A DNA stretch of 64,000 bases from Eledone cirrhosa. Taxonomy: Eukaryota. Below the pieces are notes generated by a model. It had not been told where the DNA came from, did no database searches, and saw only the letters and a program-made list of their open reading frames with translations. The position numbers were made by a program, and so were the translations under genes. The stretch is from positions 175,026,001 to 175,090,000 of the forward strand of contig OZ024742.1 of assembly GCA_964016885.1 (NCBI GenBank), written 5' to 3'. Each line of letters begins with the position of its first letter. Within the stretch, counting starts at the first letter, position 1. Positions 7,810 through 52,123 of the stretch are shown here, one piece after another.

Positions 7810-7824
7810 GGCAACGTCAAGTTG

Positions 7825-17994: not shown

Positions 17995-18529
17995 TCTAAA
18001 CTATAATAAAGTAAGGAGCGTAGGACTGCGTACAGTTTATAATTTTTTATCCCATAAGTAAAATAAGTTTGATTACTTTGAATAAATAATTGTTTCTAAT
18101 TTAGTAGATAAATTATGTAATATTCATTCATTACTTTGAATAAATAATGAATGAATATTACATAATTTATCTACTAAATTTCGTGGCTGTTGATTAAATA
18201 TATTTTGTTTACTTAAAGATTCACTTCTTTAAAATTTCTGAAATCTCAACACATCCGGTTGGCCATCGGTTAAATAAACATACTAATTTTCTATCACTAA
18301 TTTTCTCCTAATGCAGTTTATATATAGTATCGTCTATTTTAATGGTTTACGTTATTGATTAAATAAGACAGTGTAACGCAGTCTTTGTTCAATTTCTATT
18401 TATTATATATTGTCAATTACAATTTTACTTGATGTATCATATCTACATGTATATATACCTGCGTATAATATCAATATACACACTACACATGCTAGCAGAA
18501 AACCACCCGAAGAGTGGTTTTTCTGCTAG
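17995..18529 (+). mobile_element. Non-autonomous Helitron family H, copy A
   Basis: 5' TCTAAACTATAATAAAG; 3' hairpin CTAGCAGAAAACCAC..GTGGTTTTTCTGCTAG; sits between host A and T with no TSD; four more copies in the window. Confidence 0.8.
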
Positions 18530-18539
18530 TTATCATAAT

Positions 18540-18724
18540 TGTTTCTACTTTAGGAACAAGGCCAGCAATTACCCAGTGCATTACTGGTACTTTATTTTAT
18601 CGACCCCTTAAGGATGAAAGGCAAAGTCAACCTCGGCAGGATTTGAACTCAGATCGTAAAGGGACGTAACTATGCTGGAAAGCATGGCGTCCGACCCTCC
18701 ACCGATACTGCCAATCCACCGCCC
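18540..18724 (-). mobile_element. SINE family A, full length
   Basis: GGGCGGTGGATTGGCAGTATCGG head, B-box; near-perfect TSD TAGTTAT(C/T)ATAAT. Confidence 0.9.
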
Positions 18725-18914
18725 TAGTTATTATAATGATCAACTATTATTATAGTCATTCACATTGGGATAACTACATTTCAAATTTTCTGAATATTTC
18801 TTAAGTCAACCTGATGTACATGTTTTATTCTATTTTTTCTTTAACATTAGTTTTCTCATTTTAATTTTTTAAATTTTATTATTAATTATATGTATTTTAA
18901 TATTTTTCTTATTA

Positions 18915-19368
18915 ATGGCAATGGATTGGCAGTATCAATAAAGCGCTGGACAACATGCTTTGCAGCATATAGTTACGTCCATTTACGTTGTAAGATTAAA
19001 TCCCCCAGAGATTAGATTTGCCTTTCATCCTTATGGGGGTCAATAATGGTTTCTTATATAGGAACAAGGCCAGCAATGTTGGGGGAGGGGAAAGTTGATT
19101 AAATCTACCCCAGTGTGTGACTGGTGTTCTTTATTTTATTGACCCAATAAGGATGAAAGTTAACATTAACCTCGGCAGGATTTGAACTCAGATAATAAAG
19201 GGCTGTAACTCTATGATGTAAAGCATGGTGTCTGACGCTCTAACGATTCTGCCAATCCACCGCCCTTATGGGAATCAATAATGCAAAGTACCACTATTGC
19301 ACAGGAGTTGGTATATTTGACTTTTCACTTCCCTTCAAATTGCTGGCCTTGTGCCAAATTAGAATCAA
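18915..19368. mobile_element. Nested SINEs: plus-strand copy interrupted by a minus-strand copy (~19047-19264)
   Basis: CTTATGGG..TCAATAAT is duplicated on both sides of the inner copy. Confidence 0.75.
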
Positions 19369-19948
19369 TGATAAAAGTTACATAAACAATAAAAACAATA
19401 AAGAAACCATTATTATTTTTATGTTTATTTTCATTTAAATCTTTATTTTATTATTAATTTTACTATTTTTATTATATTTTAATCTTATTACTATTGTTAT
19501 TATTTTTACTATCTTTATATTATTTTCATTTATCTAAAAAAGAAATTCTCTATGTCCTGGAATTGTCAAGATTTTAAATCCAGTAACTTCTATTTGAACA
19601 TTATCCATGCTAGTGTGTAATCACGTGGCCCAATAGGAAATAGAAACGAGGCAATTGGAATTGTTTTTCTTGCCAATATCGATCAAAAAGACCTGCTGAA
19701 GCATATAATAGCATTATCTGTAAATTAAAGAAGACCATATGCTATCTCAACTGAATTGGAAGAACTCACTACTGATGTAGTAGTGTCATTGCTAGATGGA
19801 TGAGGAGAGAAGAGGTAAAGCAGGAGGAAGAGGAGGAGAAAATAGATGAGAGAGGGTTGGAGGAGAAATAGGAGTCTGAGAGACGAGAGAAGGCAGTGTT
19901 AAGTGAGTGTGAAAGAGAGGATTCACCCCACCCCCAACACACACATGC

Positions 19949-19979
<31 letters not shown>

Positions 19980-20758
19980 CACACACACACATATATATAT
20001 ATATGTATGTATACATTTATGCCTCCTGAAAATGTGAATCTAGCAAATTACAGGATGTTTAATAACATTTCCATTCAGACTGCCACAAGCAGATGGATTC
20101 ACAAAAAATAATGATTGGTCTGGGGTTGGAAAATCAAATTTTCTACCCATATGAAATTGTTTTTCTCAGTAATCAACCCCCTCCTCTTACCTGCCGCTCT
20201 TGTTTGTCACTTCAATTGCTGCCACTTCCGCAGCACCAGGGCTTTGTTGTACTTTCTAGCACCAACTTGGTGCCAAGAGGACGCATTTTACTTCTCTCTT
20301 GGATCTGAATGTCTGTTTATCTAATTTGTTCATTTTATCAAGCAAATATCATACCAAGAGAACTATTTAATTTTCTGTTGCCTGAGCCCGCAATTATATG
20401 TGGTACTTCCAAGTTAAATTGTGTGAAACCACAGCCGGTCATCCATTTTCATCCTTTTCTCCTGTCTATCTATCACTTCTGTGAGACAACCGACTTCTAG
20501 CTGCTGATTTCTGTCCTTTGGGTTAATTTTACTCGATGCTGTTATTGACAGTATTTTGGTGTTTTAACAGCTATTCTTGAACTGAGTTTTTCTCTTTATT
20601 CTATATATATGTATGTTTTAAATGCATATATATGTATATATAAATACATACATACACACACACATATATATAGTAATAATAATAAATTTGAAGACTAAAA
20701 GCCAAAGAGGGCTCGATAAGGCTAAATATATATCAAATATATAAGAACCGTAGAGCAA

Positions 20759-20870
20759 ATATTTATTAAAATAACAGATTAAAGTTTAAGCAAAGAATCG
20801 CTGCTTTCACCCTTAACGGTGAAAGCAGCGATTCTTTGCTTAAACTTTAATCTGTTATTTTAATAAATAT
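20759..20870. repeat. Perfect inverted repeat, 53-bp arms, 6-bp loop
   Basis: 20759-20811 is the reverse complement of 20818-20870. Confidence 0.95.
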
Positions 20871-20885
20871 ATATATATATATATG

Positions 20886-21260
20886 AACTATAATAAAGCA
20901 AGGGCTGTGGGACAGCGTACGGTTTATTTCATTTAATCCATTTAGTAAAATAAGTTGGATTACTTTGAATAAATAATTGTTTCTACTTTTGGCACAAGGC
21001 CAGCAATTTTCCCAGTGCATAACTGGTACTTTATTTTATCGACCCTGTAAGGATGAAAGGCAATGTTAACCTCGATGGGATTTGATTTCAGTCCGTAAAT
21101 AAAAATAATTGTTTCTATATTAGGCACAAGGCCAGCAATTACCCAGTACATTACTGGTACTTTATTTTATCGACCCCGTACGAATGAAAGGCAAAGTTAT
21201 GATTGAATATTACATAATTTATGTGCTAAATTTTGTAAACAAATAATTTCGTAAAAATAA
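20886..21260 (+). mobile_element. Helitron family H, copy B (5' part), carrying two truncated family A SINEs
   Basis: AACTATAATAAAG start; SINEs at about 20978-21098 and 21110-21198 at the same internal site as in the other copies. Confidence 0.75.
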
Positions 21261-21419
21261 ATAATCTAAAATTGACTTCTTTTCAAAGTTGCACTTCCGG
21301 TATATCGTCGCCACCACCACCACTTCAACTACCATATATATAGAAAGAGAGAGTGTGTGATGAGAGAGATAATGATTTTGTACACACTGACGCGTATGAG
21401 TGTGAACATACATACATCT

Positions 21420-21794
21420 ATACTTGAGAGGAGATTGGATGGCACATATACCCGCCTCTTAATGAGAGTGCAAAACCTATCCTGGAAACGACATCCCACC
21501 TTGTCTAAAATCTATGGCAAACTCCCTCGAGCCTCTGCCCTTCTAAAATCCCGGAGAGCTCAATTTGCTGGCCACTGTCACCGTGCCAGCAATGAAATCA
21601 TATCCGCTCTTTTGCTCTGGAACCCTGACTCCAGCCTGACTAGGAGTAGGAAGCTGACATTCCCTGACGTTATCTCTAGGGATACGGGAATCAGTAGACA
21701 GGACCTGGGGGTGGCGATGGGGGACAGGGAATTCTGGGGCATGAGAGTGAGATACATCATCTCGACAGTAGTCGATGAATGATGATGATGATGA
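21420..21794 (+). mobile_element. RTE-clade LINE 3' fragment (second family)
   Basis: LDGTYTRLL..RRAQFAGHCHR..LLLW..MGDREFW, then a stop and an (ATG)n tail. Confidence 0.8.
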
Positions 21795-22056
21795 TATGTA
21801 TGAGTATAACACTATTATGAGTTATTATGAGTATATAACTATAATCACGCAAACACAAAATTACAAAAATGCACTCTCACGGACATAATTCACACAAATA
21901 TTCATACATTCACACATACATTGACACAAACACATACAGTCATGATAGCGTTGGATTTAATTGGAAATGGGAGGGTAAAACAAGTATAACGTTTTATTTA
22001 TTTATTAACTCTTTATTTATTTATTAATTATTTTTTTAAAAACTCATCTAATATAA

Positions 22057-22928
22057 CTAGCAGAAAAACACTCTATGGGTGGTTTTCTGCTAGCTTGTGC
22101 AGTGTGTATATTGATATTATACGCAAGTATATATGCATGTAGATATGAATCATCAAATAAAACCGTAATTGACAATATACACAGACATTGAACGAAGACT
22201 GTGTTACACTATCTTCTGTAATCAGTAATCCATAATACATTAAAAAAAAACACGATATTATATATAAACTGCATTAGGAGAAAGTTAGTGACAGAAATAT
22301 ATGTATATTTATTTAAACGATCGCTAACCGGAAGTGTTGACATTTGAAATTTTAAAGAAGTGAATATTTAAATAAGTAATAACATATATTTAATGAACAG
22401 CCACGAAATTTAGTAGATACATTGTAATATTCATTCATTATTTATTCAAGTGAATTGGCAGTATCGGTAGAGGGTCGGACGCCATGCTTTCCAGCATAGT
22501 TACGTCCCTTTACGATCTGAGTTCAAATCCCGCCGAGGTTGACTTTGCCTTTCATCCTTACGGGGTCGATAAAATAAAGTACCAGTAATGCACTGGGTGA
22601 TTGCTGGCCTTGTGCCTAAAGTAGAAACAATTATTTATTCAAAGTAAGGGGTGGTGGATTGGCAGTATCGGTAGAGGGTCAGACGCCATGCTTTCCAGCA
22701 TAGTTACGTCCCTTTACGATCTGAGTTCAAATCCCGTCGAGGTTTACTTTGCCTTTCATCCTTACGGGGTCGATAAAATAAAGTACCAGTAATGCACTGG
22801 GTAGTTGCTGGCCTTGTGCCTAAAGTAGAAACAATTATTTATTCAAAGTAACCCAACTTCTTTTACTAAGGGGGATAAAAAATATAAACCATACGCAGTC
22901 CCGCGTTCATACTTTATTATAGTTTAGA
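22057..22928 (-). mobile_element. Helitron family H, copy C, with two tandem family A SINEs (22450-22629, 22648-22833)
   Basis: Same TC/CTAG termini; ATTATTTATTCAA(AGTAA) repeated at 22437, 22630 and 22834. Confidence 0.85.
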
Positions 22929-23109
22929 TTAAGCACTGTTGTAAGCACATTGATTAGATATATATATAAATGTAATAACATATAAATTATGTTGGATGCA
23001 GACACACACACACATATATATACATATATATTTATATATATACACACACATACATACCACACCACAACGGCCACACACATATATCTATACATACATAGAC
23101 ATATATATA

Positions 23110-24588
23110 GGCGAAGGCTAGACGGAAGATCGCATGCACGAAGTCTGGTCTGAAGTACGCATGCGCGAAGACTGTTTCGAAGTGCGCATGGGCGAAGGCT
23201 GGTCCGAACTGCGCATGCGCGAAGGCTGGTTCATACTGCGCATTCGCGAAGCTTGATCCGTAATGCGCATGCGTGAAGTCTGGTACGTAATGCGCATGCG
23301 CTAAGGCTTGTCCGTACTGCGTATGGGTGAAGGCTGGTACAAAGTGCGCATGCGCGAAGGTTGATCCGTATAGCGCATGCGCAAAGGCTGGTCCGTACTG
23401 CACTTGCGCGAAGGCTGGTCCGTACTGCGCATGCGAAAAGGCTGGTCCGAAGTGGGCATGCAGGAAGTCTGGTCCGAAGGCGCATGCGTGAAGTTTGGTC
23501 CGAAGTGCGCATGCTCGAAGTCTGATGCAATGTGCGCATGCACGAAGTCTGGTCCGAAGTGCGCATGCGCGAAGTCTGGTCCAAAGTGCGCATGTGTGAA
23601 GGCGGGTCCGTACTGCACATGCGCGATGTCTGGTGCGAAGGTTGGTCCGTACTGCGCATGCGCGAAGGATGGTCCGTGCTGCGCATGCGCGAAATCTGGT
23701 CCGTACCTTGCATGTGCGAATGCTGGTCCTTACTATTAATGCGCGAATGCTGTTCCGTACTGCACATACGCAAAGTATGGGCCGAAGTGCACTTGCACGA
23801 AGTCTGGTTCGAAGTGCGCTTGCGAAACCTGGTCCGAGGTGCGCATGCGCGAAATCTGGTCCGAAGTCCACATGCGCGAAATCTGGTCTGAAGTGCACAT
23901 GCGCGAAGGCTGGTCAGAAATGCGCATGCGCTAAGGCTGGTCCGAAGTGCGCATGCCCGAAGTCTGACCCGTACTGTGCATGCGCGAATGCTGGTCCGTA
24001 CTGCTCATGCACGAAGGCTGGTCCGTACTGCACATGCGTAAAGTTTTGTCCGAAAGTGCGCATGCGCGAAGTCTAATCCGCAGTGCGCATGCGCGAAGGC
24101 TGGTCCGTACTGCGCATGCGCGATCTGGTCCGTAAATTGCATTCGTGAAGGCTGGTCCGTACCGCGAATGCATGACGGCTGGGCCGTACTGCGCATGCAC
24201 GAAATCTGATCCGAAGTGTGCATGCGCGAAGACTGCTCCGCACTGCGCAAGCACGAAGGCTAGTCTCCGTACTGCGTATGCACGAAGGCTTGCCCAAAGT
24301 GCACATGCGTTAAGGCTGGTCCAAAGTGGGCTTGCACGAAGGCTGGCCGAAGTTCGCATGTGAGAAGGCTGGACCGTACTGCGCATGCGCGAAGTCTGGT
24401 TCATACTCTGCATGCGCGAAGGCTGGTGAGAAGTGTGCATGCGCGAAGGCTGGTCCGAAGTTCACATGCGCAAAGTTTGCTCCGTACTGCGCATGCGCGA
24501 AGGCTGGTCCGAAGTGCGCATGCGCGAAGACTGGTCCGTACTGCGCACGCGTGAAAGCTGGTCAGTACTGCGCATGCACGAAGGCTTG
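23110..24588. repeat. 27-bp GC-rich minisatellite, about 55 units, each with TGCGCATGCGC
   Basis: Consensus TGCGCATGCGCGAAGGCTGGTCCG(TAC/AAG); flanked by (TA)n. The 9-codon period explains the many ORFs here. Confidence 0.97.
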
Positions 24589-24719
24589 TATATATAAATA
24601 TATATACAATATATTTCTATTCTCCAACTATTGATTTTCTTCATCTATCCAATCCCCTCTTACATATTCCAGCACTGTCTTTTCACCAGCACCTATTCAC
24701 CCGCCCACACACACACACA

Positions 24720-24755
<36 letters not shown>

Positions 24756-24756
24756 C

Positions 24757-25098
24757 ATCATCATCATCATCATCATTTTACGTCCGCTTTTCCCTGCTTG
24801 CAAGGGTGGGACAGGAACTGATTCTGGCTTGATTTCTACAGCTGGATGCCCTTCCTAACACCAACCTCATTTACAGTGAGTGCTGGGTGCTTTTTTCCCG
24901 TGGCACCTCCACGACCACTTTGCAGTGGAATGATATGGACCCCAGTCCCTATCATCTCATTTCTACAGCTGAGTAAACTGGAGCAATGTGAAATAAAGTT
25001 TCTTGCTCAAGGAAACAACACATCACCCGGTCTGAGAATTGAACTCACAACCTTTTGATTGCAAGGCCAATGCTCTAACCACTAAGCCATGTGCCTCC
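24757..25098 (-). mobile_element. tRNA-derived CORE-like SINE with RTE-derived tail
   Basis: Head GGAGGCACATGGCTTAGTGGTTAG..GAGTTCAATTC, CCTTGAGCAAGAAACTT core, GGAAGGGCATCCAGCTGTAGAAATCAAGCCAG tail as in the RTE 3' UTR, and (GAT)n end. Confidence 0.85.
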
Positions 25099-25262
25099 TA
25101 TATATATATATATATATCTTTCAGCTTTTTTTCACTAATCCTTTTGTTACTTTATTTCTAAAGAAAAACACTATCTATTATTTTCAAAGGTTTTTGAAAT
25201 TAATGAAGAATTTGAAGGAAATTTTCCTTATTAAGCTAATGATTGGAATATAAAATTATAAT

Positions 25263-25448
25263 TGTTTCTACTTTTGGCACAAGGCCAGCAAATTACCCAG
25301 TGCATTACTGGTACTTTTATTTTATCGACCCCGTAAGGATGAAAGACAAAGTCAACCTCGGCGGGATTTGAACTGAGATCGTAAAGGGACGTAACTATGC
25401 TGGAAAGCATGGCGTCCGACCCTCTACCGATACTGCCAATCCACCGCC
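25263..25448 (-). mobile_element. SINE family A, full length
   Basis: TAAAATTATAAT duplicated on both flanks. Confidence 0.9.
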
Positions 25449-25976
25449 AATGTAAAATTATAATGCAGTGATTTTAGAGAAATATAAACACTTTAAAATA
25501 AACAATCAGAGGCAGTTTCAGGTGGTTTGGAATCAAACGATTTGATGTAAAATGGAAAATTGTATCATTTGAAATACCTTAGGTAAAAAATTAAAAAACT
25601 ATTCAGATTTGTTACCTCAGAAACGTCTGAAATGACATTTTCCACTCTTCAACTAAATTTGTGGCTTTGTGCCTACATAAGAAATCTACAAAGCATTTGA
25701 TTAAATGCCTTAACATTGGTCTAGCTATTAGCACTCTATGTTTGAATCCTACCAAAGTAAACGGTGCATTTTTTCCTTACAGGGGCAATAAAATAAAGTG
25801 TCAGGCCTATATTGGGGGTCGATGTAATTGACAGAGTATTTCATTAGATGGAAAAGGTTAACGTTTTTATATTTATCTAATCAACTTTTATCATAATGTT
25901 ATGTAAGAACTTTGGTTAAAATATGATCTAAACCCCAGATAAATTGGTGACTTTCATTAGAAATATGATGAAAGTA

Positions 25977-26238
25977 TTAAACCTTTTGATGCCAAATGTT
26001 TTGAAACCATCCTCGTTCTATGATACAACACTATTTATTTTCAAGTGTTATATTTATCTAAAGACTTTACATAATAATTCTATGTAAGAAACCTTGTTAA
26101 ATTATGCTCCAAACTTCAACAAAATAATAAGAAAGTGAGTTACATTAATAAATCCCTCCAATTACTTGATTATTTTCAAAATTGTTTGAAAATCACAGAC
26201 AGTGATTTGCATTAGAAGAATGGAAATGAAAGGGTTAA
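25977..26238. mobile_element. Older piggyBac-like MITE; representative of many decayed copies (near 14620, 15150-15650, 25140, 28640-29080, 39840-40160, 48130-48480, 60270)
   Basis: TTAA(A/C)CCTTT..AAAGGGTTAA ends and the shared internal motifs AAGCTGGTGTTTGGAACAT and TTCTTACATAAAATTATGATAGAAG. Confidence 0.6.
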
Positions 26239-26704
26239 TGAACTCCTATAGTAAAAACAGCATTGTATTGCTTTTTGTTTGTTTGCTGGGTTTTCTATCA
26301 GAATCTATAAAGGCATTGCTGCAAATATGAGGTGTCAACAGCTTAAAGCAACTAATGAAAATAACAACAAGTCAAATAATATGGAAGACAAATGAGCTAA
26401 AGAGGTACTATAATCCCTTTAGTCTCCACAGATTTCTCTGTTAAAAGCTAGGATTAGCAGATATGGAAGTCTACATCCTTCGTCTATAGGAATTACCATT
26501 TCATTCTTGAGAATAACTTGATTGTCATGGAAATACTCTGGAGATAACCAGATCTAATGGGCAAAGAAGGTATTGGTGGATGAAATTTACTGTCAAGAAT
26601 TGGGGATTATAGAAGATTTAAAATGTTTAGAGAAACATTTAAATGGATGCATAAACTAATTAGAATTTACACTTGGATATATATACACTTTGTAAAATTG
26701 CAAT

Positions 26705-27415
26705 GATGGTGACATAACATACATCCAGTCCACTCAGTAAAATGGCATTGCTGGTGTCATAATAAAATACTCTCAGTGCACTCTGTAAAATGGCAGATCT
26801 AGTGTCATGATAAAATTCACTCAGTACACTCTATAAAATGGCATTGCTTCAACTGTGATACAAGTCACTCAGAACACTGTAAAATGGCAGTGCTGGTGCC
26901 ACAATTAAATGCATCCAGTACACTATCTAAAATCTCAATACCCATACCACAACAAAATGCATCTTATATGTTCTATAATATGGTAGTACTTGTGCCTCAA
27001 TAATACTCCTTCAATGTGTAAAGTGGTAGTGCTGTTTTCACAATAACTTTGACTACTTTCCAGAGTGAGCAGGGTGCATCTAGTTCACTCCGTAAAGTGT
27101 TAGTGTTGGTGCCATGATAAAATGCTCTAGTGTACTCTGTAAAATGTTAGGGCTTGAGACATGACAAAATACATTTAGTACAATATGTAAAGTGTGAGAA
27201 CTCGTACCACAATAAAATACACCTAGTACATCTTATAAAATAGTAGTGCTGGTATAACAATAAAATGTAACCAGTACACTGTGTAAAGTTATTAGCATTA
27301 GGAAGGAGATGCAGTCATAGAAACCATTTCAAAAAGGTTATCTGACCCATCATATCTTGGACCAGGACAACTCATCCATGCCAGCATGGAAAACAAATGT
27401 AAAATAATGATGATA
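26705..27415 (+). repeat. ~48-bp tandem array (about 12 units) ending in an RTE-type tail
   Basis: Same unit as at 16290; ends CCATGCCAGCATGGAAAAC..ATGATGAT. Confidence 0.85.
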
Positions 27416-27574
27416 ACTTACCAGTTTCTAAAGATAGAATTTCCTATTCTGTTCATGAAATGTCAAATGCTTTTGAAACTGAGCAAATAAGATTGTTTAT
27501 TTCTTAATATCCTGTGACGATTTAGCAGAGAATATCTAAAAATCAGTTTGTTAATTCAAATATTTTTATCTCTA

Positions 27575-28100
27575 TTAGTTGACAATTTATTATGAAAATT
27601 TGCATTAAACTAAAATAACAACTATAATTTTTACCAGGATAAAATCATAGTGCTGTTTTATATTACTCGATAATGTCTAGCTAATGTAGTTCATGTGGTG
27701 TGTTAATTCAAATTAATACTGTAGTGCTCGTGTAACAATAAAATATAACCAGTACACTATGAAAAATGATTTGCATTAGGAAGGACATGCAGTCATAGAA
27801 ACCACTAGTAGACAGATTTTTGTGAAAATTTTCAATAAAATAAAGTAAGCAGTTTGATTTTTAATGTAATGCAGATATAATGCTACCTAATACTTTTAAA
27901 GAATGCCTTGCTATTGTGGTTTCATGTGCATTGTTAATTCAAATGATATAGTATTTTTACTAATAAGCAGATTACTGTGAAAATTGGGTATATTAGAGTA
28001 GAGTCTTTACTTCCCAATGCAATGCAGTCATAGTGGTGTTTTGTACTATCAAAGATGTCTCATTAATGTGATTTGATGTGATGTGTTAATTTCAATGTTG
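27575..28100. repeat. Three diverged ~140-bp direct repeats
   Basis: ..TGAAAATT.. to ..TGTTAATTCAAAT blocks near 27575, 27806 and 27960. Confidence 0.55.
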
Positions 28101-29710
28101 ATAGGCAAATTGTTGTAAAGATTTACAGTAGTCTTGAGATGAGTAAATAATTCCTTGTGAGTGGAATTTGATAATGGAATCTGCAGAAGCCCATCGTGTA
28201 TGTATGTATGTGTGTGTTTATGTTTGCATCTGTGTCACAAAATTTAGAGGTTCCACAAAATAACAGTGATTCAATAAAACATGTACAAGATTTTAAGAAA
28301 GAAGTATACAATTAATCTGTTTATATCTCTTTGTCCATCAGAACTAATAGACGTTACAACCTCTCCTCATATACACAAAACTATTAATAATTTTACATGT
28401 CCTCATCTCATAAATTTAAATAAACTTAAAAATCTCATAATTCCATATTCTCCTAATCTTGATTAAATCAAGTTGGTGCTTCAACATATTTGCAGTCTGA
28501 GGACTGAAATGAGTAAAATAATAAGCACAAACACTGTGTGAATAACATTGAGCTATGAAATATTGGGAAATATATAAACACTTGCCCACTTGCTATAATG
28601 AAAAATAACATCACACACAGCAATGAGCCTTTGTTGTTAACCCATTCGTAACCATATTTCTATCAAAATATGTTAATTTTCTTTCAAATAATTAAGAAAA
28701 TAATCAAGAATCTCAAGATATTTTGTGATACTATCCACTTCTGATTCTATAAAACAAAATCACTCATATAAAAGAGTTCTTTGTTTAACTTAAAATCTTC
28801 TAACATAATGTGGTATAAGAACAATTTGTTAAGTTAAATTACAAATATTTTCTTGATAATAAAATAACTAAAAGTGTTTTGTAAACCTCTTAACGCTATT
28901 CATTAATCAATTGAAATAGAGTGTATGTCATTAGAAAGAGGTAAGCTGGTTTTTGGAACATTATTTCTGTAAAATTATGATGGAAGGTTTTTAGATAAAA
29001 ATAAGCATTTTAAAAGAAGCAATATTGTATTGTACAAGCAGGGGCGGTTCCAGATGGTTTGGTTTCAAAAGGGGTTAAGTGTGAACATTTTTCTATTTAT
29101 TTAACTGTCGAAAATCAGAGAGTTCTAATCATAAAAAATATAAATCTTCATTACAGCCACTTCTTAGTCATTAGGCTTGTTCTGCGTTACATGAAAATAT
29201 ATTTCTTTTTTTTCAACTCATTTATCGCTTAACTTCCAAATATGATTTAGTCATTCTATTCAGTTACTGCAACTATTAAATTGTATTCACCCTTAATCTC
29301 TTCCTATCTGTCTCCTATCAATTACTGCCATACTAAAACAAACACATATATATATACAACATAGTTTCCAAATGAACTCGCCCCTACTTGATTAGGCTGA
29401 AAATTCAGAGAAATTCAGTCATACCATGAAACAAATAAAGATTAATTGGAATTTCTTTCCTATTTTTCTTCCATGAAACACTTCTCAGTTCATAACTCTA
29501 TTCAGTTAACCATTTTGGGTTGATGGTGTTTATATTTATTTATTAAGATGGTTGGCATTGAGAAGGGCATCCAGCCATAGAAAACCAAGCAGAATATGGA
29601 TCATATGAGCAAGACATGTTCACTTGATCTGTCTGGTCACATAACATGACACCTCATCTAACCCACAACAGCATAGAAAATAGATGTTAGACATAGATAA
29701 TAATAATAAT

Positions 29711-30368: not shown

Positions 30369-31345
30369 CTAGCAGAAAAACCACCCTTCAAATAAAATCG
30401 TAATTGAAAATATGCACTGAAATTGAAGAGAGACTGTGTTACACTCTCTTCTGTAATCAATAAAGTAATCCATGATACATTTAAAAAAGACAATATTATA
30501 TATAAACTGCATTAGGAAATATTAGCAACATAAATATAAACCTTATATAATGATGCAAATATATGAACGTTTATATAAGTGATGTAATAAGTGTTATAAT
30601 ATAATTGTTTCTAGTTTTGGCACAAGGCCAGCAATTAGCCCAGTATGTTACTGGTACTTTATTTTATCGACCCCGTAAGGATGAAAGGCAAAGTTAACCT
30701 CAGCGGGATTTGAACTCAGACCATAAAGGGCTGTAACTCTTTGTTGCAAAGCATGGCGTCCGACCGTCTACTAATACTGCCAATCCACCGCCCTTATATA
30801 ATAAGTGTTATAATATAATTGTTTCTACTTTTGGCACAAGGCCAGAAATTATCCAGTGTATTACTGGTACTTTATTTTATCGATCCTGTAAGGATGAAAG
30901 GCAAAGTTATCCTCAGCGGGATACTGCTAATCCAGGACGCTAATCAGAAGTCTTAACATTTGAAAATTTTAAAGAAGTGAATCTTGAAATAAGCAATAAA
31001 ATTATTTATATTTGATCAAGAGTTATGAAATTTAGAACATAAATTATGTAATATTCATTCATTATTTATTCAATTGGCAGTATCAGTAGAGGGTCGGACG
31101 CCATGCTTTGATGCATAGAGTTATGGCCTTTGCCATTCTGAGTTCAAATCCCGCCGAGGTTAAATTTGCCTTTCATCCTTACGGGGTCAATAAAATAAAG
31201 TACGAGTAATGCACTGGGTAATTGCTGGCCTTGTGCCAAACGTAGAAACAATTATTTATTCAAACTAATCCAACTTATTTTACAAACAGGATAACAAGAT
31301 ATATTCAGGACGCAGCCCCACACGCCTCCCTTTATTTTATTATGA
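30369..31345 (-). mobile_element. Helitron family H, copy D, with three family A SINEs (30606-30793, 30820-30935, 31074-31250)
   Basis: CTAG end at 30369; TSD ATTATTTATTCAA at 31061 and 31251; ATAAGTGTTATAATATAAT duplicated around the first SINE. Confidence 0.8.
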
Positions 31346-31409
31346 TAAACAGACACAAATGTAAATTAAGCCATGGATAGACACATGTATATTCACATCA
31401 ACATCACAT

Positions 31410-33374: not shown

Positions 33375-33875
33375 TGTTTCTACTTTAGGCACAAGGCCAG
33401 CAATTACCCAGTGCATTACTGGTACTTTATTTTATCGACCCCGTAAGGATGAAAGGCAAAGTCAATATATTAATTTAATGCTTAATGTAGTAGGAACATA
33501 GTCTTAATGTTTCAGACACTAGTTGTTCTTCAGAAGATAGAAAAAGAAATAAAAGATAAATAGAAACATATAGAGTGAGAAGAGAAAAGGACTGAAAAGA
33601 ATTGGAGATGAGAAAAAGCATGTGTATTCAGTCAGCCATATATATATGTATATAATAATGATTTCTAGTATAGGCACAAGGCCAGTAATTTGGAGGGAGG
33701 GAAAAGTCAATTAAACCGACCCCAGTGCGTTACTGGTACTTTATTTTAACGACTCCATAAGGATGAAAGGCAAAGTTAACCTCGGCAGGATTTGAACTCA
33801 GATCATAAAAGGCCATAACTCTATGCCATAAAGCATGTTGTCCGATGCTCTACCGATTCTGCCAATCAACTGCCC
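33375..33875 (-). mobile_element. Two family A SINEs (33375-33465 truncated, 33660-33875 full length)
   Basis: First copy has TSD ATATATTAATTTAAT; diagnostic motifs present in both. Confidence 0.85.
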
Positions 33876-35749
33876 TAATAGTAATAATGGGTATAAATCA
33901 AAGTTATAGTCGCAATATAGCAGATACCAGCCTCAAGGGTTTGAGAAGTTGATACATTTTCACCCAGAATAAACACAAAAAGTTAATAAAGTGTGACACC
34001 AAGAGTAAAGAGACCAAAAGCATGTTGCTGATATATAGATCGAACATTAACATATATACTTACATATACAAAGACAGAGAGAGTGGGGGTTGAATCGATT
34101 ACTCCGCTCAACCCTGGAAAAAGGACTTGGTCTGAAATATCAAGAAGTTCTTCTCCAGTCAGTGTGAGTTAGTCCTTCTCGTGCATTAAGTGATATTACT
34201 GCTATTAGCATTCAGATTTCCTCCTAATGTGTTTTTACAAAATAATGCATTGGTAGAGATATTAGAAGGTTGGTTTAAACATTTTGGATCTTGTTCTGGC
34301 TCTGGCTCTGATCATTCTGAATTCAAATTCCATCTCCTACTGACAAGAATTATGAATGACAGACAGTATTATTAATGGAAATATCAATGGAAGAATAATT
34401 TCCTTTGTTTTATCTGATGATCTTTTCATTTCCTTTGTATTTACAAATGAGTCTATAGAATTATATAAATGTATGCAGTTGTCTTTCTCCACCTCTTTAT
34501 CTACCCCCTTTCTCTGTCCCTCTCCAATCATATGTATGTTTATGAATGAGTGTGTGTGTTTGTGTGCATGAAGTCTCCTTGAGCAAGACACCTTACGTCA
34601 TGTTGTTCCACTTCACCCAGCTGTTAAAATATGTTGTACCTGTAATTCGAAGTGTCTGCCTTGTTACATTCTAGCATAATGAATTTGCCTGAGAACTATG
34701 TTGATCAAAATCAGCTGAAGTTTTCATTGTTTCCAATTAAGTGCCAATATAGCATTTCCCTATTCTGTTCTTCCTCTCTTAAATATGTTTCAAAACCTGA
34801 AACAGTCATGGTTCTGGTATTAGGTATTAAACATGCTATATTTAGTGTTAAACCTTTGGAAGTTTTATTGTTAACCTATGTTTCATTAAGTGTTTAGAGA
34901 CTGGTGGTGGTTATCTTTCCATTGATCTTATTATTGTTGTTACTAGCTGTCAGTTGCAAATACCATCAGTTTTCCTGTGACAGGAGGCAGGATTTGAACA
35001 GAGAATGTACAGAGCTAGAACAAATACAACAAAACAACATTTCCAACAATTTAACTATTCTGACTAGATTGGTATTTTATTTAGTGACATTGAAAGGGCA
35101 AAGTTGACTTTGGCATGATTTGAACTCAGAGTGTAGAAAGGGAGATTAAATACTGATGCATTTATTCCAATGCTCTAACATCTCTGATAGAAAAACAGTG
35201 TAGATATAACTATCATAAATATATAAATATACTATATTCTAAAGACGAGGTTAACAGTCCTGAAAATTATATTCTTACTAAGAATAACTCATCACAGACA
35301 TTTAGACATACAACTTTCTTTCTCTTTCCCTCTTTATATATCTATATTTATAGATAGACATGGATGAGCGGATGTAAAATGTCGGTGATATGTTTATATA
35401 TGTGTCTGAGTGTGTGTGTGTGTGTATATAGATAGAATGAATGTAAAATGACGATGGTAATATACATATACAATATATATATATATATAACTGACAGAAT
35501 GCACTGATATACAATGTCATATTCTAAAGATATTTACAGTGAACTATTGACATTTGTCTATTAACCCATGTCTTACATCCAAGCCACATCAGAAATATCC
35601 AGGCCAAACGATTGTGTGTGAGACAGGGGGATTATGTGGGTCAGTTGGCATGGGCTTATCATGTGAGGGGGATACTTGCCTAAAGTTCTAGTTCTTTTAT
35701 TATCTTCTATTACTTATAAGGAAATAACCATCATCATATACATGTATAT

Positions 35750-36112
35750 AGTGGTAAATGCAGTCAAACCACTGAAAAACAGACCTTCTAGATAGTGCCT
35801 TAACAACGTGGAACAAAGACTCTCTCAGCTTTACAGAATCCCTCCCTGCTGGCTCTAGGGATTCCTGGCACTTCTGGTCCTGCCTGAATCACCTCCGAAG
35901 TTTGGCTCTACAGCGACCAACCTCCAGAAATGAGGATATGCCACCGATGATGATTCCAACTGCCAATGCAATCACAAACTATGGAGTACCTTCTTGTTTG
36001 CCCCAATCCTGAAGATTCATGCATACTTAACGCTCTTGAAAGCTTAATACTCCAGGCAAGTCCCTGTGTGCAACACTAGATGGGTGTGGTGTAACGACTC
36101 AGCAAGAAAAAT
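35750..36112 (+). mobile_element. Decayed LINE 3' fragment, Vingi/Ingi-like
   Basis: Frameshifted WSCLNHLRS..TNLQK*GY..NCQC..QTMEYLLVCP resembles the W..LNRLR..KWG..CxC..QTM.HLL.C C-terminus. Confidence 0.45.
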
Positions 36113-36139
36113 AATTTGTAAACCATATATAAATTATAT

Positions 36140-36715
36140 GTATTTAGCACTGATTATTAAGGTACATATTGAGCAATTTTGAAATTAGGGCAACATTTCA
36201 CAATTTGCCTTGTATATTACCATCTGTGGGAGCCTGCAATTTACATCCGGCTAGGGCCTATTACCAGCTTTGAGGGTCTTTATTTTACATCAGAACTTGA
36301 CCAGCTTTGGCGGTTTGCATCTGGGCTGGCCTGTTACCAGCTTTGATGGTTTACATTTTACATTTGGACAGGCTTGTTACCAGCTTTGAGTGTTTATATT
36401 TTACATCAGAACTTGACCTGTTACCAGCTTTGAACTACATTTTTCATCTGAGCTGGCTTGTTACCAGCTTTGAGGAACTAGATTTTACATCTGGGCTGGC
36501 CGTTACCAGCTCTGAGGGTCTACATTTTACATTTGGTCTGAACCTATATTACCAGTTATTTGTGGGGTAGGCGTCATTACAATATACATCTGGCCTGGGC
36601 TTATTTCCAGCTTTCAGCAAAGATGGTTAGGGCTATGCCTTACATTCGACTTGGATATACTACCAGCTTTTGACCCTACAATTTACATATGGTCTAGACC
36701 TATATTACCAGATTT
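36140..36715 (+). repeat. ~42-bp tandem array (about 11 units) with a unique leader
   Basis: TTTTACATCTGGGCTGGCCTGTTACCAGCTTTGAG units; leader plus about one unit recurs inverted at 62020-62135. Confidence 0.8.
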
Positions 36716-38051
36716 GTGACATGACAAATAAGCACTGAGTCCAGCCTATCAAGTAGTCATGTTGGTGGCATGACAGAAGGCATCCCGTTCAACATGTGGA
36801 GTGGTTATGTTAGCAACACATGACAATAAACACTCAGTTCACTATTTACATTGTGGACTGGGTGCTTTTTGTCATGTCACCACCACAACTACTTCACAGG
36901 GTGGACTAGTTGCTTTCTGTCGTGTCTGTGCCAAATATGTACTAGTATGTCTTTTACCTCCTACCTCTAGTGCTGCTTCCACAATAAAATTCACTCTGTA
37001 GAGCACAGATTGTATGTAAGAAAGGTGTGAGCTTCCACTTGGGAGTGTGTGAGAACATATGTAAAACATATAGGTATATATATATATAAGCAATCCACAA
37101 ACAAAATTTTGTAACAATTTGGTGAAGAAACTGAATATTATTTATTCCATCTATAAAATAATGGGTTATGTTTTCGTGACAATAATACAAAAAAAGATTC
37201 ACTATAACTATATCTTAGTAAGTTTCAATCCAGAGAACTGGTAAAGGACTCAAATAGAATTGTGCTTTATAACAATAAATTTGAAAATGCTTTTATAACT
37301 TTCGTAAAGATTCAGGGAAGTGAGCTATAGAGTAATTCATATATGTTTTTTTATTTTAAAATGAAGTACTTTTATTTGTGCACAAACAATATTTGTTATA
37401 AACTTCAAAATAAATACCAACTGCTAAATCAGTACTTTAATTAACTTAACCTAAAGAGGACACAACACAAATGAGAGGGATTCTCTAGCTGTTTATCTGA
37501 AAATATGGGTTAAACATTGTTGGAAACTCAATAATTATAAATAATAATTTTTTGTACTTAAATATGTTCACATTTCCCATATAAACTGCGACACCTATTT
37601 CCACAAAATTATAACTTAAAAATTCAGGATATAACTTAACTATTGGAGCTATAAACCATCAATTTAAAATAAAAGCTACATTACATAATATGTAAAATAG
37701 AGAAGTGATGTAGCTTCCAGTGAAACTTTACACAAATTTAAATGGAACACAAGCTCAGTAGCTAGGATTTATCTATTTGCAGTTGATATTCCTAAATGCA
37801 AGCACAGATTTTATTCTAATAGTTTCTTCCCTTGCACATCTTACCTATGAAATTCTCCTTCAGCTTCTTGCTTTCCTGATCACTACAACTTTCAAAAATT
37901 CAAAAGAAGCATCAATCAGCAGCTCTCTCCTTGATTTATGTTCTCTCTGTCTTGCACATTTTAATTGCTTTATTGCCTTGCTTGTGGTGAGCAAATTAAT
38001 ATAAATATATATATTTATATTTTTAGAAGATTATGTATCTATGTATATATT

Positions 38052-38333
38052 TAAATGTGTAGGAAAAACAAATACTTCACGCCTAGTGTTTGTTTTTCCT
38101 ATACATTTAGAAATATTATTACTCTGTGATCTTCCACCTGGATACTATAATTTGATCCCTCTTTTTGGACTATTACTGTAGCTATTACTGTAGACCATGT
38201 TGAGAAAAATACTTTGGTAAGCAATCTTGTTTTACTTTTGTTTGTACACTTATCTACACAAACAAATTTTACTCGTACATATATTCATATGTGTGTATAT
38301 ATATACACATATGAATATATGTACGAGTAAAAT
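38052..38333. repeat. Two palindromes (25-bp arms 38052-38109; 29-bp arms 38266-38333)
   Basis: First has two mismatches, both G-U compatible; second is perfect around a TA-rich loop. Confidence 0.85.
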
Positions 38334-38403
38334 ATATATATAGTAATAATAATTATGATCACCAAAATCCGAAGAGGGGTCAATAATCTGTAATAATAAT
38401 ATA

Positions 38404-38652
38404 TCATCATCATCATCATCATCAACGTTTAACGTCCGTGTTCCACGCTTGCATGGGTTTGGACAGGGGTTTTCCCACTTGAGGCAAGAGTGATTGTCTT
38501 GCTCGCATAGGACTGTCTGGCGGGTTTTCTACAGCTGGATGCCCTTCCTAACACCAACCACATTTACAGTGTGGGGCTGGGAGGTTTTTACCGTGTTGCC
38601 TACACGGCCACATTACAGCGTGGACTGTGTGTTTTTTTTTGTCGTGACACCT
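38404..38652 (-). mobile_element. RTE 3'-end fragment, near-identical to 54385-54635
   Basis: Both give the same spurious peptide MSCSHRTVW..YSWMPFLTPTTFTVW; (GAT)n tail. Confidence 0.85.
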
Positions 38653-41010
38653 ACACATATGTATATATATATATAAATTCAAAAGCTGCAGTAATTGTCT
38701 TCACACTATTTACATTATTGTCCATGTCCTTTCTCAGTAACTCCTTGCATTTAAGTTGTTTTATTGCCTTGCTTGAGGAGAGTAAATTAAAATATATATA
38801 TCATCATCATCATCATTTTACGTCTGCTTTTCCCTGCTTGCAAGGGTGTGACGATATATATAAATATTCTTATAATAATTGTTTCTACGTTAGGCACAAG
38901 GCAAGCAATTACCCAGTGTATTACTGGTACTTTATTTTATCGACCCCGTAAGGATGAAAGGCAAAGTTAACCTCGGCGGGATTATGGAGCAAAGATATAA
39001 TTATATAACTTTTAATCCTATGGTGATTTTCTTTCAGACTGGAATCTTAATAAAAATCTTGTGGTAATTCATTATTATCATATATCTATTTTCCCAGTTA
39101 GAAAAGGTTGGGCCAACATTGTTTTTAAAAGTGGCTTTCAAGCAACATCATCCAACACAAAACTAATTATAATTCACTGTGAGCTGTGTCTATCTTTAAA
39201 TTTATTCACCTCATTTAGGTTTCTTTCTTTTCTTTTTTCTTTATTTACATGAAAGCCTGCGTTTATTTATTTATTTATTTTTTTTTTGCTGTTTTTTTTT
39301 GGCCTCTAAATATCCATATGTGATTAATGTTTTCTTTGCAACAAAACTAAAATATGTGCCCAAGGTAAATAATTTTGAAATTTATAATCATGTTGCAGCC
39401 AATTTTTAATTTTAATTAGTATCATTTTCGTTTTAATTATATACTTTTAATTAACTAAATTATATTTTTGTAATACCCTGCTTTCCAAATGAAATTATTT
39501 TACATATTTTACATATTCATGAAGTGTTAAGTATATTTTCCTTCAACAAGGAAAATTAGAGTCATTGTTTTTCCATAGTTAAGGGTTAAGGTTGAAATTT
39601 TGATTAGAAGTGCTGTGGTATTGAACTACAATATATTTCATTGGAAATATGCTTGTGAAAGTGTTAAAAGCAATATAAGTGTTAAGATTTTTATCCTACA
39701 GCATTTTATGCAAAACGATACTGAAATTGCACTACTATTAAATCTTTCTTTGCTGCAATTTTATTGAAAGATGCTGTCAATGATTTTTAAATAATTTTGA
39801 AAAAATTAAAAAATATTTATCCAAATTACTTTCTCATTATTTTAGCTGGTGTTTGGAACATAACTGACCAAAGGCTCTTACATAAAATTACGATAGAAGA
39901 TTTTTAGATAAATATAAGCGATTTAAACCTTTCATTACTGTATTTCTAATGAAAATCACTGCCTTCAGTTTTCATATAATTTTAGGATTTGAAGAGATTT
40001 TGTAATATAAGTAATTTCATTGGAACATAACTTATTAAAACTTCCTTACAGAGAATTATGATGAGAGATATATAAATAAATATAATCCCTTTAAGATAAA
40101 AGTTTTTGTATCCTGTAAGTAGTGGTGGTTTCAGGCAGTTTAGTAACAAAAGGGTTGTTAATAAATCCTCTATTCCTTTATCTGCAAGTCTGTGTGTGTA
40201 CACAGCATATTTACAAATATAGCCATGTACATACTTTGCCATATAAATAATCTCATTTATAATTGCTTGTTCATAGACAAGAGGTACATAAATTAAAAAT
40301 CGAAGTTAGTTTACACGGGGTCAGCATGAAAAGTCAGAAATTGTTGATTGTATTTAGTAAAGCAAGGACAACGGAGCAAGAATTGCTGCCAAATATTCTC
40401 TCTATTGCTAAAAGGAATTATTTAAACACTGCCAACTTGCTGACAGAGTTGGTCAATACAACATCCAATTAAAACAGTTGAGATTTAATAATTAGTTTTC
40501 TCTAAAAATTCAATTGATTTACAGACATTTATTTACATCAATACATTATGTATCCATTTGTATATATGACATTATAATTTGATAGTGCAGCATTATTTTA
40601 ATAATATAGTTATTAATAATATATTGTTAATTATATGTAGGCGGCATTATAAAATTTGATTAAATGCATTGCAGTATTCATTTCAGCTCTCTGCACTCTG
40701 AGTTCAAATCCCGTTGAAGTCAACTTTGCCATTCTTCCTTTCAAGGTCAATAAAAAAGTACCATTAAGGTTCTTGAATTAATTCTTCATCTATATCCCTT
40801 TCTCATTTCCCCTATAACACAGTCTCTGTCCTTCTTGGTGAAAAGTAGGCTGTGTTCAGACCTGGTGAGGAGATAGGCTCTGCCAGTTTGAAATTGTCCA
40901 ACACATGCTGTATGTTACTATGGTGTCCCTAAAGCTCTACCAGGAGGTACGGGTAAAGACAGAGTAGGGGGAGGAAGAGGAGAATTATTATTATTATTAT
41001 TATTATTATT

Positions 41011-41567
41011 GTTCTTTGAGTCTCAGTCATTGATGTTAGTTAACTGGAAAGTTTGGTGAAATGAATATCAAGCCACTACCTGCAGCCTCAGATATTCAGG
41101 ACGTATCGGAGAGTTCTTGCTGTTCCCAGCAAGCATGCCTTTTGAAGCATTCCAAAAAGCGTGGCGGGGCCAATTTTCTTTAACCATCCCTGGAAATATT
41201 TTGAGATAGTACCTAGTACGCCTATGACAATCGGGACTACTTTGACTTCATGGCAGTCCCATATCCTTTTCACCTCCCACTTTAAGTCCTGGTATCGGTT
41301 AATTTTCTCCCTCTTCTCTTGCACTCTTGTGTTGAATGGGCAGGCCACACCCACAATCAGGCACGATCTTTTTTCCTTGTCCAAAACCACCAGGTCAGGT
41401 CTATTGTGTTCCAGTTTCTTGTCCGTCTGTATCCTAAAATCCCACAGCACCTTCACCTGATCGTTTTCTATCACCGACTCTGGCTTATGCCACTTCTCGG
41501 AATGTGGTAAATCGTTTACTTTGCATAGGTGCCAGTGGATCACCCTGCCCATCACATCATGTCTCCT
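41011..41567 (-). mobile_element. R4-clade (Dong-like) non-LTR retrotransposon, 5'-truncated, restriction-like endonuclease domain
   Basis: RRHD..IHW..LWDF.IQTD..HNRPDLV..ACP..K..RYQDL..VVPIVIG.LG; (TAA)n on both sides. Confidence 0.9.
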
Positions 41568-41699
41568 ATTATTATTATTATTATTAATATTATTATTATT
41601 ATTATTATTATTATTCAATATGTTTGATGCTCGACACCACTACGTTGACATCATATGCATATGCTGACATTGATAGTCTGCATTCTACTTTCCATGACA

Positions 41700-43053
41700 T
41701 GATCTAGGATCTGGAAGGTCTGTGTCAGCATATTTTGATGATGTCACCATAGTGATGTTGAGCAGCAAACATATTAAGTTGATTGGTACCATTCTTGAGG
41801 AATATGAAGCAATAACAGGAGCAAGAATTAACCAAGAAAAGTCAGTGAGCTTGCAGCATGGCACCAGGAGAAGCATGTCCATGATGTCCTACAATGGCAT
41901 CAGGTGCTGTACAGATGGATCTGTTAAGTTACTCAGGGTCTGGTTTAGTCCAGACCTCCAAATGCATAAAACCTGGGATGAGATAATGAGCAGAGTGACC
42001 AATCTAACCTATCTCTGAAAAGTCGAGCAGGGGTGGCACACATGTACATTGTGTCTTGTCATCTACTACCGACTGATCATTATTCCTTGTCCTGGTCCAT
42101 ATCTGCCCATACTGGAGCGTTTGCTTTTTCACATTTTGTGGAAGGGATGCATACCAATTATCAGACAGTCCATTTGTTGTCAATACCTGCTGAATGGAGG
42201 ACCAGGCATGTTGTGGTTGATGATGCCCAAACATACTTTCTGGCTAGGTCATCTCCATCTTTACCTCAACGGTATTTGCCATTTGCTAGACCCAGTTTTT
42301 CACAGCTCATCTCCTTGACAGAGCTACAGTTCTGGGTCAAACGAAGACTGAGAGGAAGCACTAGGAAATTGAAACATTCTCAAACTCTCACCGTCTTTAA
42401 CCAAACAGGCAGTGGGATCAGGGGAATTCCACCTTGGCTTTCTATAGAGGTTTAGTGGTGGGTAAAAATGACAAAATTCTTGGGGAGACTCTATGGGTTG
42501 ATGAAAATCAACTAGCCACTCTTTTCCAGAGGATTTCTGTCCAGGGCTCTTGGATAACTTGCAGAAAATCCCAGGCCTGGCAGTGATATCTTGAAGTTTG
42601 GCAGTTTGAGATAAACACTATAGGCATGCAAGTGCCATCAGCTGGGAGTGTGCAAGTGTGTGCAGGGCAATGAAACTGCCTGCATTTACTCGTCTAGTGT
42701 CTGAGTATTGCTGACTTGTGGGTTTATGCTGAACCCTGCTGTCATGTGTAGGACTATCAAGTGAGTCCATTGTGAAGATAACCCCATCTTCTTTTAAAGG
42801 GGAAGGACAGGCAGATTTGTATCTGCCTGGTGGATATGGCAAAAGAGATTGTGTGATGGATGTGTTGGAAAGGGTTGAAAATGAGTACTTTCCTCTTCAG
42901 TGAAGCCCTAATTAATCTTTTTAGGTTTCACCTGAAGAGAAAAATCAGAGTGAAGAGAGAAATGCTGCTTTCCAAACAATTTGTTGTAAGGCGGGAGAGA
43001 GAGAGATGAGCATGGCTCAAGTGAATGGGGTTGCTCTGAGTATGTGCCTGTAG
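41700..43053 (+). mobile_element. Decayed 5'-truncated Tx1 relative
   Basis: SAYFDDVT..EEYEAITGARINQEKS..WFSPDLQ..IYYRL..LFHILWK..RQSICCQ; collinear with the C-terminal half of ORF2 at 2710-4100. Confidence 0.9.
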
Positions 43054-43204
43054 ATTTGAGGTGAATAACTGGGATAGAGCAATTGCCATAATAGTCAACT
43101 GAAGAGTTCTAACACATAATATTATGCAAGATCCTTTGTTGTGATATGTTAGAAAACTAATTATATAACTGTGTGATATTTATCAATGTAAAAGCTATAT
43201 AAAT

Positions 43205-43712
43205 CAGCAGAAAACCCTTCGAGTGGTTTTCTGCTAGCATGTGTAGTGTGCATATTGATATTATACGCAAATATATATGCATATAGATATGATACGTCAA
43301 ATAAAATTATAATTGACAATATGCACAGAAATTGAAGAGAGACTGTTACACCGTCTTCTGTAATGAGTAAAGTAATCCATGATTAAAAAAAGTGAAATTT
43401 AATGCAAACGAAAAGAGAGAAAATTAGCAACAAAAATTTGAATGCTATGATATAACGATGCAAATATATAGACGTTTATATAAACGATATGTGATATAGC
43501 GTCCATTATATTATAACCGGAAGTAATGACATTTGAAAATTTTAAAAGAAGTGAATCTTGAAATAAGCAATCATTATATATAAGAATATATTTATGTTAA
43601 ATCAACAGCTACGAAATTTAGTACATATATTATGTAATATTCATTAATTATTTATTCAAAGTAATCTAAATTATTTTACAAATGGGATTAAAAAATATCC
43701 TTTTATTAAAGT
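43205..43712 (-). mobile_element. Helitron family H, copy E, SINE site empty
   Basis: Hairpin AGCAGAAAACC..GGTTTTCTGCT; single ATTATTTATTCAAAGTAA at 43647-43664. Confidence 0.8.
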
Positions 43713-52097: not shown

Positions 52098-52123
52098 ATA
52101 TATATATATATATATGCATATAT

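Follow-up and report, generated by a model that had tools for sequence, protein, structure and literature searches.

The window analysed here is a 64-kb stretch of the Eledone cirrhosa genome (contig OZ024742.1), and consists of AT-rich, repeat-dense, animal-like DNA. It includes a family of Helitron-like elements in which a single site, here called the pad, has been entered repeatedly by a short interspersed element (SINE). A search of the 64 kb with a hidden Markov model of the Helitron-like family found exactly five copies, designated A to E, which have a unit length of approximately 480-510 bp and are clustered within 26 kb. The 18-mer of the pad has six exact matches and one further match with a single mismatch (in copy D), whereas 0.51 matches would be expected even with up to 3 mismatches allowed, and the pad coincides with the best-conserved 30 columns of the family (29/30 vs 67%; permutation p=0.004).

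Four of the 5 copies have an occupied pad, with six SINE events at one base, and all pad SINEs are antisense to the Helitron-like element and end in GAAACA|ATTATT. Copy A (17995..18529, + strand) is full length, with a 5′ TC and a 3′ hairpin and CTAG, and lies between A and T; its pad (18072..18148, - strand) carries a 19-bp duplication (18072-18090 and 18130-18148) flanking an aborted insertion. Copy B (20882..21290, +) is divergent and 3′-truncated, starts within a TA repeat, and contains two 5′-truncated SINEs, B1 (20978..21099, -) with a target copy of ~10 bp at 21100-21109, and B2 (21110..21197, -) with a duplication of at most 2 bp. The full-length copy C (22057..22928, -) also contains two, C1 (22450..22629, +) with a 13-bp 5′ target copy (22437-22449) and C2 (22648..22833, +) with 18-bp target copies (22630-22647 and 22834-22851), both of a young subfamily. 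Copy D (30369..31345, -) has canonical ends and an internal deletion near the 3′ end, and its single pad SINE (31074..31250, +), which has a 13-bp 5′ target copy (31061-31073), belongs to a subfamily that differs from that of C1 and C2. Copy E (43204..43713, -) has degenerate ends and is SINE-free, and its empty pad (43646..43664, +) has A, not C, at position -1 (43646).

Two other SINE loci are associated with these copies. A full-length SINE at the end of copy A (18540..18724, -) entered a C|ATTAT target and has a 13-14-bp duplication overlapping the terminal CTAG. A tandem pair in copy D (30606..30934, -) is located at an internal C|ATTAT in the opposite orientation to the pad SINEs, with duplications of 20 bp and 0 bp. 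One member of this second site (30586-30934) has an internal deletion of ~66 bp, and the homologous 20 bp is inverted in copy E (43494-43520), where the CATTAT is kept and is empty. Overall, 6 of the 18 SINE events are at the pad and 12 are elsewhere, and 8 of the 18 fall inside Helitron bodies, which make up ~3.5% of the DNA.

The original prediction had described this layout correctly, from the 18-mer shared by five copies to the aborted insertion in A, two SINEs each in B and C, one in D and none in E. The common orientation and 3′ junction of the pad SINEs were also as it stated, as was their lower divergence (3-13%) relative to the host copies, which are 12.9-23.1% diverged in pairwise comparisons with A and C the closest pair (12.9%). 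It gave the target-site duplications as 13, 18 and 19 bp; all three lengths are present (19 bp in A, 18 bp in C2), but 13 bp is common to C1 and D, and those in B are ~10 bp and no more than 2 bp. The C1/D coincidence, the oppositely oriented pair in D and the SINE on the CTAG end of A had been missed.

The Helitron-like family is probably a non-autonomous Helitron of the HLE1 type, an assignment that rests on structure. A 5′ TC is present in 3 of the 5 copies (A, C and D), and B and E open in TA repeats with TA. The terminal CTAG is found in A, C and D, and E ends in CTGA. A 3′ hairpin (z ~ -7) is formed in A, C and E and has lost its left arm in D, and A|T flanks with no duplication were seen at A, C and D. 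These features resemble those of canonical HLE1 in the available part of PMC11417382, where a 5′ TC, a 3′ stem-loop and CTRR, an A/T insertion site and no duplication are given as criteria. Unlike the HLE1 described there, the stem extends to take in the terminal CTAG. As a result, the 38-bp inverted repeat in the hairpin at 18490-18529 and its homologues has CTAG at each end. The RepHel domain was absent from the 292 window frames scanned, and no autonomous partner was found within the window. A near-perfect 112-bp palindrome (56-nt arms, 98%, spacer 0) is located at 20759-20870, immediately upstream of copy B. An unrelated second Helitron-like element at 58038-58974 has a TC start, a CTAG end, a TA-repeat setting and an internal duplication, and both of its CATTAT sites (2/2) are empty.

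The SINE is ~190 bp long with an (ATT)n tail, and its 17 short-type copies are dispersed in the window; some are 5′-truncated, and the duplications range over 0-20 bp. A full copy has an A-box-like motif at 12-24 and a B box at 77-85. Given internal RNA polymerase III (Pol III) boxes, a short length, dispersal, truncation and a simple-repeat tail, the SINE is of the tRNA-derived type. ARAGORN and Rfam searches of the window detected no tRNA in it; what they returned, in AT repeats and a palindrome, was attributable to chance. The SINE may also resemble DeuSINE elements (Deu/Nin central domain). Mean divergence of all 17 short-type SINEs is 8.7%. Folding of the tail as a stem-loop was not significant (z 0.1 and 0.4), and the core pattern had 0 matches in prokaryotic genome contigs. 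When the SINE tails were searched against the SINE-masked window and the 3′ ends of four fragments resembling long interspersed elements (LINEs) for a partner LINE, only the insert in copy A was significant, and the partner may lie elsewhere. A bivalve SINE with an L2 partner likewise ends in (ATT)n in the part of PMC4824008 available, which may provide a lead to the partner clade. MetaSINE was rejected as a candidate because comparison with BivaMeta and BivaMD from the available supplement of PMC4824008, made by eye with no alignment run, showed no likeness.

A long type of the SINE (19042-19266 and 33654-33875) has ~30 bp extra before the tail and itself ends in C|ATTAT, both of which the short type has lost; the copy at 19042 is nested in an older SINE. 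At 60393-61025, three older long-type SINEs stand head to tail with no Helitron around them, indicating that SINE stacks need no pad. Degenerate old SINEs (1997, 17703, 18881, 40655 and fragments) and the long-type cluster at 60393-61025 were not counted among the events (junctions unresolvable).

All 17 of the short-type SINEs in the window, in or outside Helitrons, have GAAACA (AAAACA in one) followed by ATTA(T). The shared 3′ junction is therefore a general rule of the SINE and is not specific to the pad. C occupies position -1 in 11 of 13 non-pad SINE loci compared with 69 of 387 background ATTAT sites (p=3e-7), and in 7 of 8 loci when limited to duplications of at least 7 bp (p=4e-5). None of the 11 non-pad loci having C at -1 has A at -2 (p=0.02). 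The -1 test also includes loci s59048 and s1253, neither of which is a C|ATTAT site. The same C is present in all four occupied pads and is replaced by A in copy E. Using a matrix trained without the pads, pad E scores 4.7 and ranks 488, compared with 9.1-9.7 for the occupied pads. Copy E can be regarded as a natural point-mutant control for the -1 base, though a suggestive and not a clean one. Sequence-directed insertion, as originally proposed, is thus supported by use of C|ATTA(T) across the whole window.

The pad insertions also appear to be independent events, as had been proposed. Conclusions from the SINE tree were drawn from approximately unbiased (AU) tests alone and not from the topology, which has no starred branch. 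A single clade of the five pad SINEs was rejected (p=2e-4), as was a clade of C1 and D (p=6e-6) despite their common 13-bp duplication. The pad SINE of D clusters with two non-Helitron SINEs (89/97), the nearest relatives of C1 lie outside Helitrons (1.1% and 1.9%), and on the tree the pad SINEs show no clustering (161/500 shuffles as low). No SINE junction is common to two Helitron copies, 5′ ends differ, and the six pad events would be distributed over several SINE subfamilies.

The 39-bp insert in copy A combines 8 nt of SINE tail (18091-18098) with 32 nt of flank copied in inverted orientation (18098-18129), which stop exactly at the -1 C, with the last four bases of the 19-bp duplication overlapping the inversion. 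It matches the SINE tail at 19/20 nt (E=5e-4), and 13/14 nt agree with the tail of the young subfamily. The arrangement appears to reflect a template switch at a TTTAG microhomology, where synthesis left the SINE RNA for the adjacent DNA and copied back to the nick, and the end of the inverted copy at the -1 base fits a putative nick at 5′-TAAT|G-3′. Another SINE is centred in a 55-bp inverted repeat (58994-59307; 75% complementary) with T at -1, and this repeat may be a further insertion-linked inverted duplication like that of copy A.

After insertion, the 3′ target copy follows the ACA end of the SINE and has A at -1, and only the original 5′ copy retains C|ATTAT. The suggestion that each duplication regenerates the target was therefore not borne out. 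The target is preserved by insertion, not regenerated, and is lost where the duplication is short (B2 and the second site in D). Each of the 3 tandem pairs has an outer 5′ target copy shorter than its middle copy (13<18, 2<10, 0<20), as expected for a second SINE entering the 5′ copy, and the original 5′ target copy is likely to be the one re-hit. Second insertions were found at 3 of 5 Helitron-internal loci and at 0 of 10 others (p=0.02).

Occupancy of the pad (4/5) exceeds that of other ATTAT sites in the window (10/386; Fisher p=5e-6), and the enrichment over this background named in the original prediction is thus seen, though in one window and five copies. However, the SINE requires C|ATTA(T), which makes ATTAT an unsuitable background; relative to the true motif the excess is 5-11-fold with p of 0.0005-0.01. 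All four intact pads are occupied, compared with 8/69 other CATTAT sites (p=5e-4), 5/29 CATTATT sites (p=0.003), 2/13 CATTATTT sites (p=0.006) and 8/45 matrix-matched sites (p=0.002). If E is kept among the pads, p is ~0.01. Event-rate ratios for the pad are 7-11, or 5.5-18 within 17-40 kb, and six events on four pads compare with 5 on 29 CATTATT sites (p=8e-4; 0.001-0.006 within 17-40 kb). The excess over the motif is probably real. For AT content and low stability, the upstream flank of the pad ranks at the 92nd-98th percentile among empty sites. Folding of the pad as a hairpin or cruciform was no better than that of shuffles (z -0.2 and -0.8).

The best explanation, with a probability of about 0.9, is that SINEs were inserted independently by target priming at the general motif C|ATTA(T) in old Helitron-like copies. 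The motif marks SINE sites window-wide, and copy E has lost the C. The partner LINE would nick the strand antisense to the SINE at 5′-TAAT|G-3′, and pairing of the freed end with the (AUU)n tail of the SINE would fix the orientation and the 3′ junction. Variable second-strand cuts and 5′ truncation would produce duplications of 0-20 bp, and entry of second SINEs into the preserved 5′ target copy would give head-to-tail pairs, with the six events spread over several subfamilies. The Helitron would be a passive carrier of a good target. We lean, with more reserve, towards a further 5-11-fold preference arising from flanking sequence, in which the endonuclease or the priming step would read the flank of the conserved, very AT-rich Helitron block; this is the weakest step of the scheme. 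Precedents for targeting by motif and context exist in EhSINE1 (PMC1635306) and in L1 priming (PMC3649969).

Several observations weigh against this explanation or its extension to the flank. Two non-pad loci, at a palindrome centre and in an ATT microsatellite, lack the C. Copy E sits in a 16-kb stretch without this SINE where two further intact CATTAT sites are empty, and its emptiness need not stem from the -1 base. A clade of C1 and C2 was neither supported nor rejected (51/0). The pad excess comes from five copies in one window at a site chosen post hoc, and if the aborted A is treated as empty, p is 0.01-0.13 across motif definitions and 0.03 for the matrix set. Matrix scores of the pads do not exceed those of other occupied sites and are equalled or surpassed at 37 empty sites, indicating that the 12-base motif does not hold the excess. 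Other occupied sites cannot be told from empty ones by the AT content or stability of their upstream flanks (p 0.75-0.93), leaving the flanking-context step without positive support beyond the pads. Among six flank-composition measures compared between the same classes, five showed no difference and one gave p=0.043, which is partly circular.

The pad may alternatively be an ordinary C|ATTAT site, its 4/4 occupancy a lucky draw seen post hoc in a SINE-dense stretch. The number of intact pads is only four, p rises to 0.03-0.13 for the stricter motifs with A uncounted, no context feature predicts occupancy at other sites, and 10 of 15 short-type loci lie in 18-39 kb. Chance does not readily account for the event counts on four pads, which stand out also within 17-40 kb, nor for the repeat insertions concentrated at Helitron-internal loci, and the insert in A truly bears a SINE tail. 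On balance, such a draw seems rather unlikely.

RNA-assisted homing is more doubtful. Here, Pol III read-through to the first run of four T residues (T4), at +28, would add ~30 nt of the pad to the SINE RNA, and this extension, by base-pairing to the nicked strand at other pads, would promote priming there in a self-reinforcing process. In keeping with this, 16 of 17 SINE bodies are T4-free, the first T4 is at +28 in 4/4 occupied pads, and the conserved Helitron block spans the read-through stretch. R1Bm, moreover, reportedly primes accurately only if its RNA includes target sequence from downstream, according to the part of PMC7265360 available, which cites Anzai 2005. However, the pad SINEs are unclustered on the tree and resemble background copies, and no SINE with a 28-nt pad flank was found away from Helitrons in this window. 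We consider the process improbable. If true, it would turn a SINE with a 5-base motif into a homing element that fills, and maybe disables, a functional Helitron element, which would be a new kind of transposon-transposon interaction.

Equally improbable is adaptation or tethering of the SINE/LINE machinery to the Helitron, through a protein on the conserved 5′ block or through open chromatin, which would make the Helitron a renewable safe harbour. The exceptional conservation of the pad and the share of events inside Helitron bodies point in this direction. On the other hand, 12 of the 18 events are off the pad and the identical motif is used everywhere, the Helitrons (13-23% diverged) are older than the SINEs, no SINE-bearing Helitron copy ever propagated, both sites in the second Helitron-like element are empty, and the flanking DNA is just as non-coding. 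Host coding domains were absent from the 285 frames scanned of the 305 of at least 48 aa beyond 8 kb, where the sole match was a reverse transcriptase; the other frames were 15 within the 23-24.6 kb satellite and the final 5. The renewable safe harbour of the original prediction is thus not supported, given the events off the pad, the older hosts, the failure of any SINE-bearing copy to spread and surroundings in which the frames scanned showed no host coding domain.

Tandem pairs might have formed by unequal exchange between the target copies of one SINE, given that C1 and C2 differ by just 3.2% and are neighbours on the tree, although without support. The chance of this is slimmer still, as 5′ ends and target-copy lengths are unequal within each pair, B1 and B2 are 10.6% apart and the D pair 8.3%, and C1 is nearer to unlinked copies than to C2. 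A single ancestral capture, spread by rolling-circle copying of the Helitron or by local duplication and visible as congruent trees and identical junctions, is scarcely tenable: despite the 13-bp duplication common to C1 and D and five Helitron copies within 26 kb, it is refuted in this window, barring gene conversion replacing each SINE, by AU rejection of monophyly (p=2e-4), by different SINE subfamilies and 5′ ends, by SINEs younger than the divergence of their hosts, and by the different events in A and C, the closest Helitrons.

Other elements in the window include an apparently intact LINE with two open reading frames (ORFs) at 2710-7824 (- strand), encoding 451 aa and 1153 aa, the latter with endonuclease, reverse transcriptase and zf-RVT domains; it is presumably Tx1-like. 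A degraded relative is present near 41780-42450. LINE fragments were found at 2-1315 (-), with an endonuclease ORF, at 52076-53425 (+), with a reverse transcriptase ORF, a PHD-like finger and a (GAT)n tail (presumably RTE-like), and at 41091-41639 (-), with an (AAT)n end (presumably R4/Dong-like). The repeat mix of the window resembles published octopus repeat families (PMC13282606, PMC8967140). A GC-rich tandem array of ~30-bp units at 23110-24590 contrasts with the AT-rich surroundings.

SINE hotspots inside other transposons are already known, and the pad adds a new case to them, with a local excess at p of 0.0005-0.01. Cantrell et al. in 2001 reportedly described SINE hot spots in the rodent element mys, with repeated independent insertion at one site; mys is said to be a retrovirus-like host compared at orthologous loci across species, unlike the paralogous copies here. 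Alu hotspots in older human transposons have been documented on a large scale by Levy, Schwartz and Ast. In the available part of PMC2836564, AluSx is found after position 72 of MER5A1 and antisense after position 102 of MER45A, different subtypes share a spot, and known motifs alone miss some hotspots. Repeated insertion at one position and orientation, a DNA-transposon host and several SINE subtypes are common to both cases. In contrast to the poly(A) and TT|AAAA described for Alu (PMC2836564), the present case involves a Helitron-like host and a SINE that ends in (ATT)n and targets C|ATTA(T). Occupancy (4/5) is very high relative to the Alu case as presented there (PMC2836564), but is derived from five copies only.

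For EhSINE1/EhLINE1 of Entamoeba, the motif is necessary but not sufficient and flanking structure contributes, as stated in the part of PMC1635306 available. EhSINE1 is similar in having a short endonuclease motif with G/C beside ATT in an AT-rich genome (PMC1635306, same part). However, its GCATT belongs to the nicked strand, which is cut within ATT, while CATTA here belongs to the other strand, and the resemblance in letters may therefore be superficial; nor does that text place EhSINE1 in another transposon, unlike the present SINE. Tx1L of Xenopus, a non-LTR (long terminal repeat) element that likewise resides inside a DNA transposon, targets Tx1D and is cited in the available portion of PMC6719617 as a safe-haven strategy. 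It is an autonomous, sequence-specific LINE (PMC6719617), whereas this SINE uses a 5-6-base motif and is mostly off the site (12/18). Dedicated targeting of the Tx1L type was ruled out, with 6 of 18 events at the pad. In the snap-velcro model of L1 (PMC3649969) and in R1Bm/SART1Bm (PMC7265360), priming is more efficient when the 3′ end of the RNA pairs with the nicked target strand, as given in the accessible parts of both. There the effect has been shown biochemically, and for this SINE it is only proposed. No report of a C|ATTA(T) motif, or of a Helitron serving as a SINE hotspot, was found in the literature covered; subscription papers, Repbase/Dfam and octopus supplements were outside its scope and may contain this family. 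Nesting is not discussed in the available parts of PMC13282606 and PMC12988792.

A precise target rule (C|ATTA, with a probable nick at 5′-TAAT|G-3′) for an abundant invertebrate SINE helps in finding its partner LINE, and SINE insertions shared at such sites are unsafe phylogenetic markers. The determinants of hotspots beyond the endonuclease motif are left open by PMC2836564 and PMC1635306 in the parts available. If the excess holds genome-wide, thousands of paralogous pads would constitute a mutational scan of the determinants of a non-LTR hotspot beyond the endonuclease motif.

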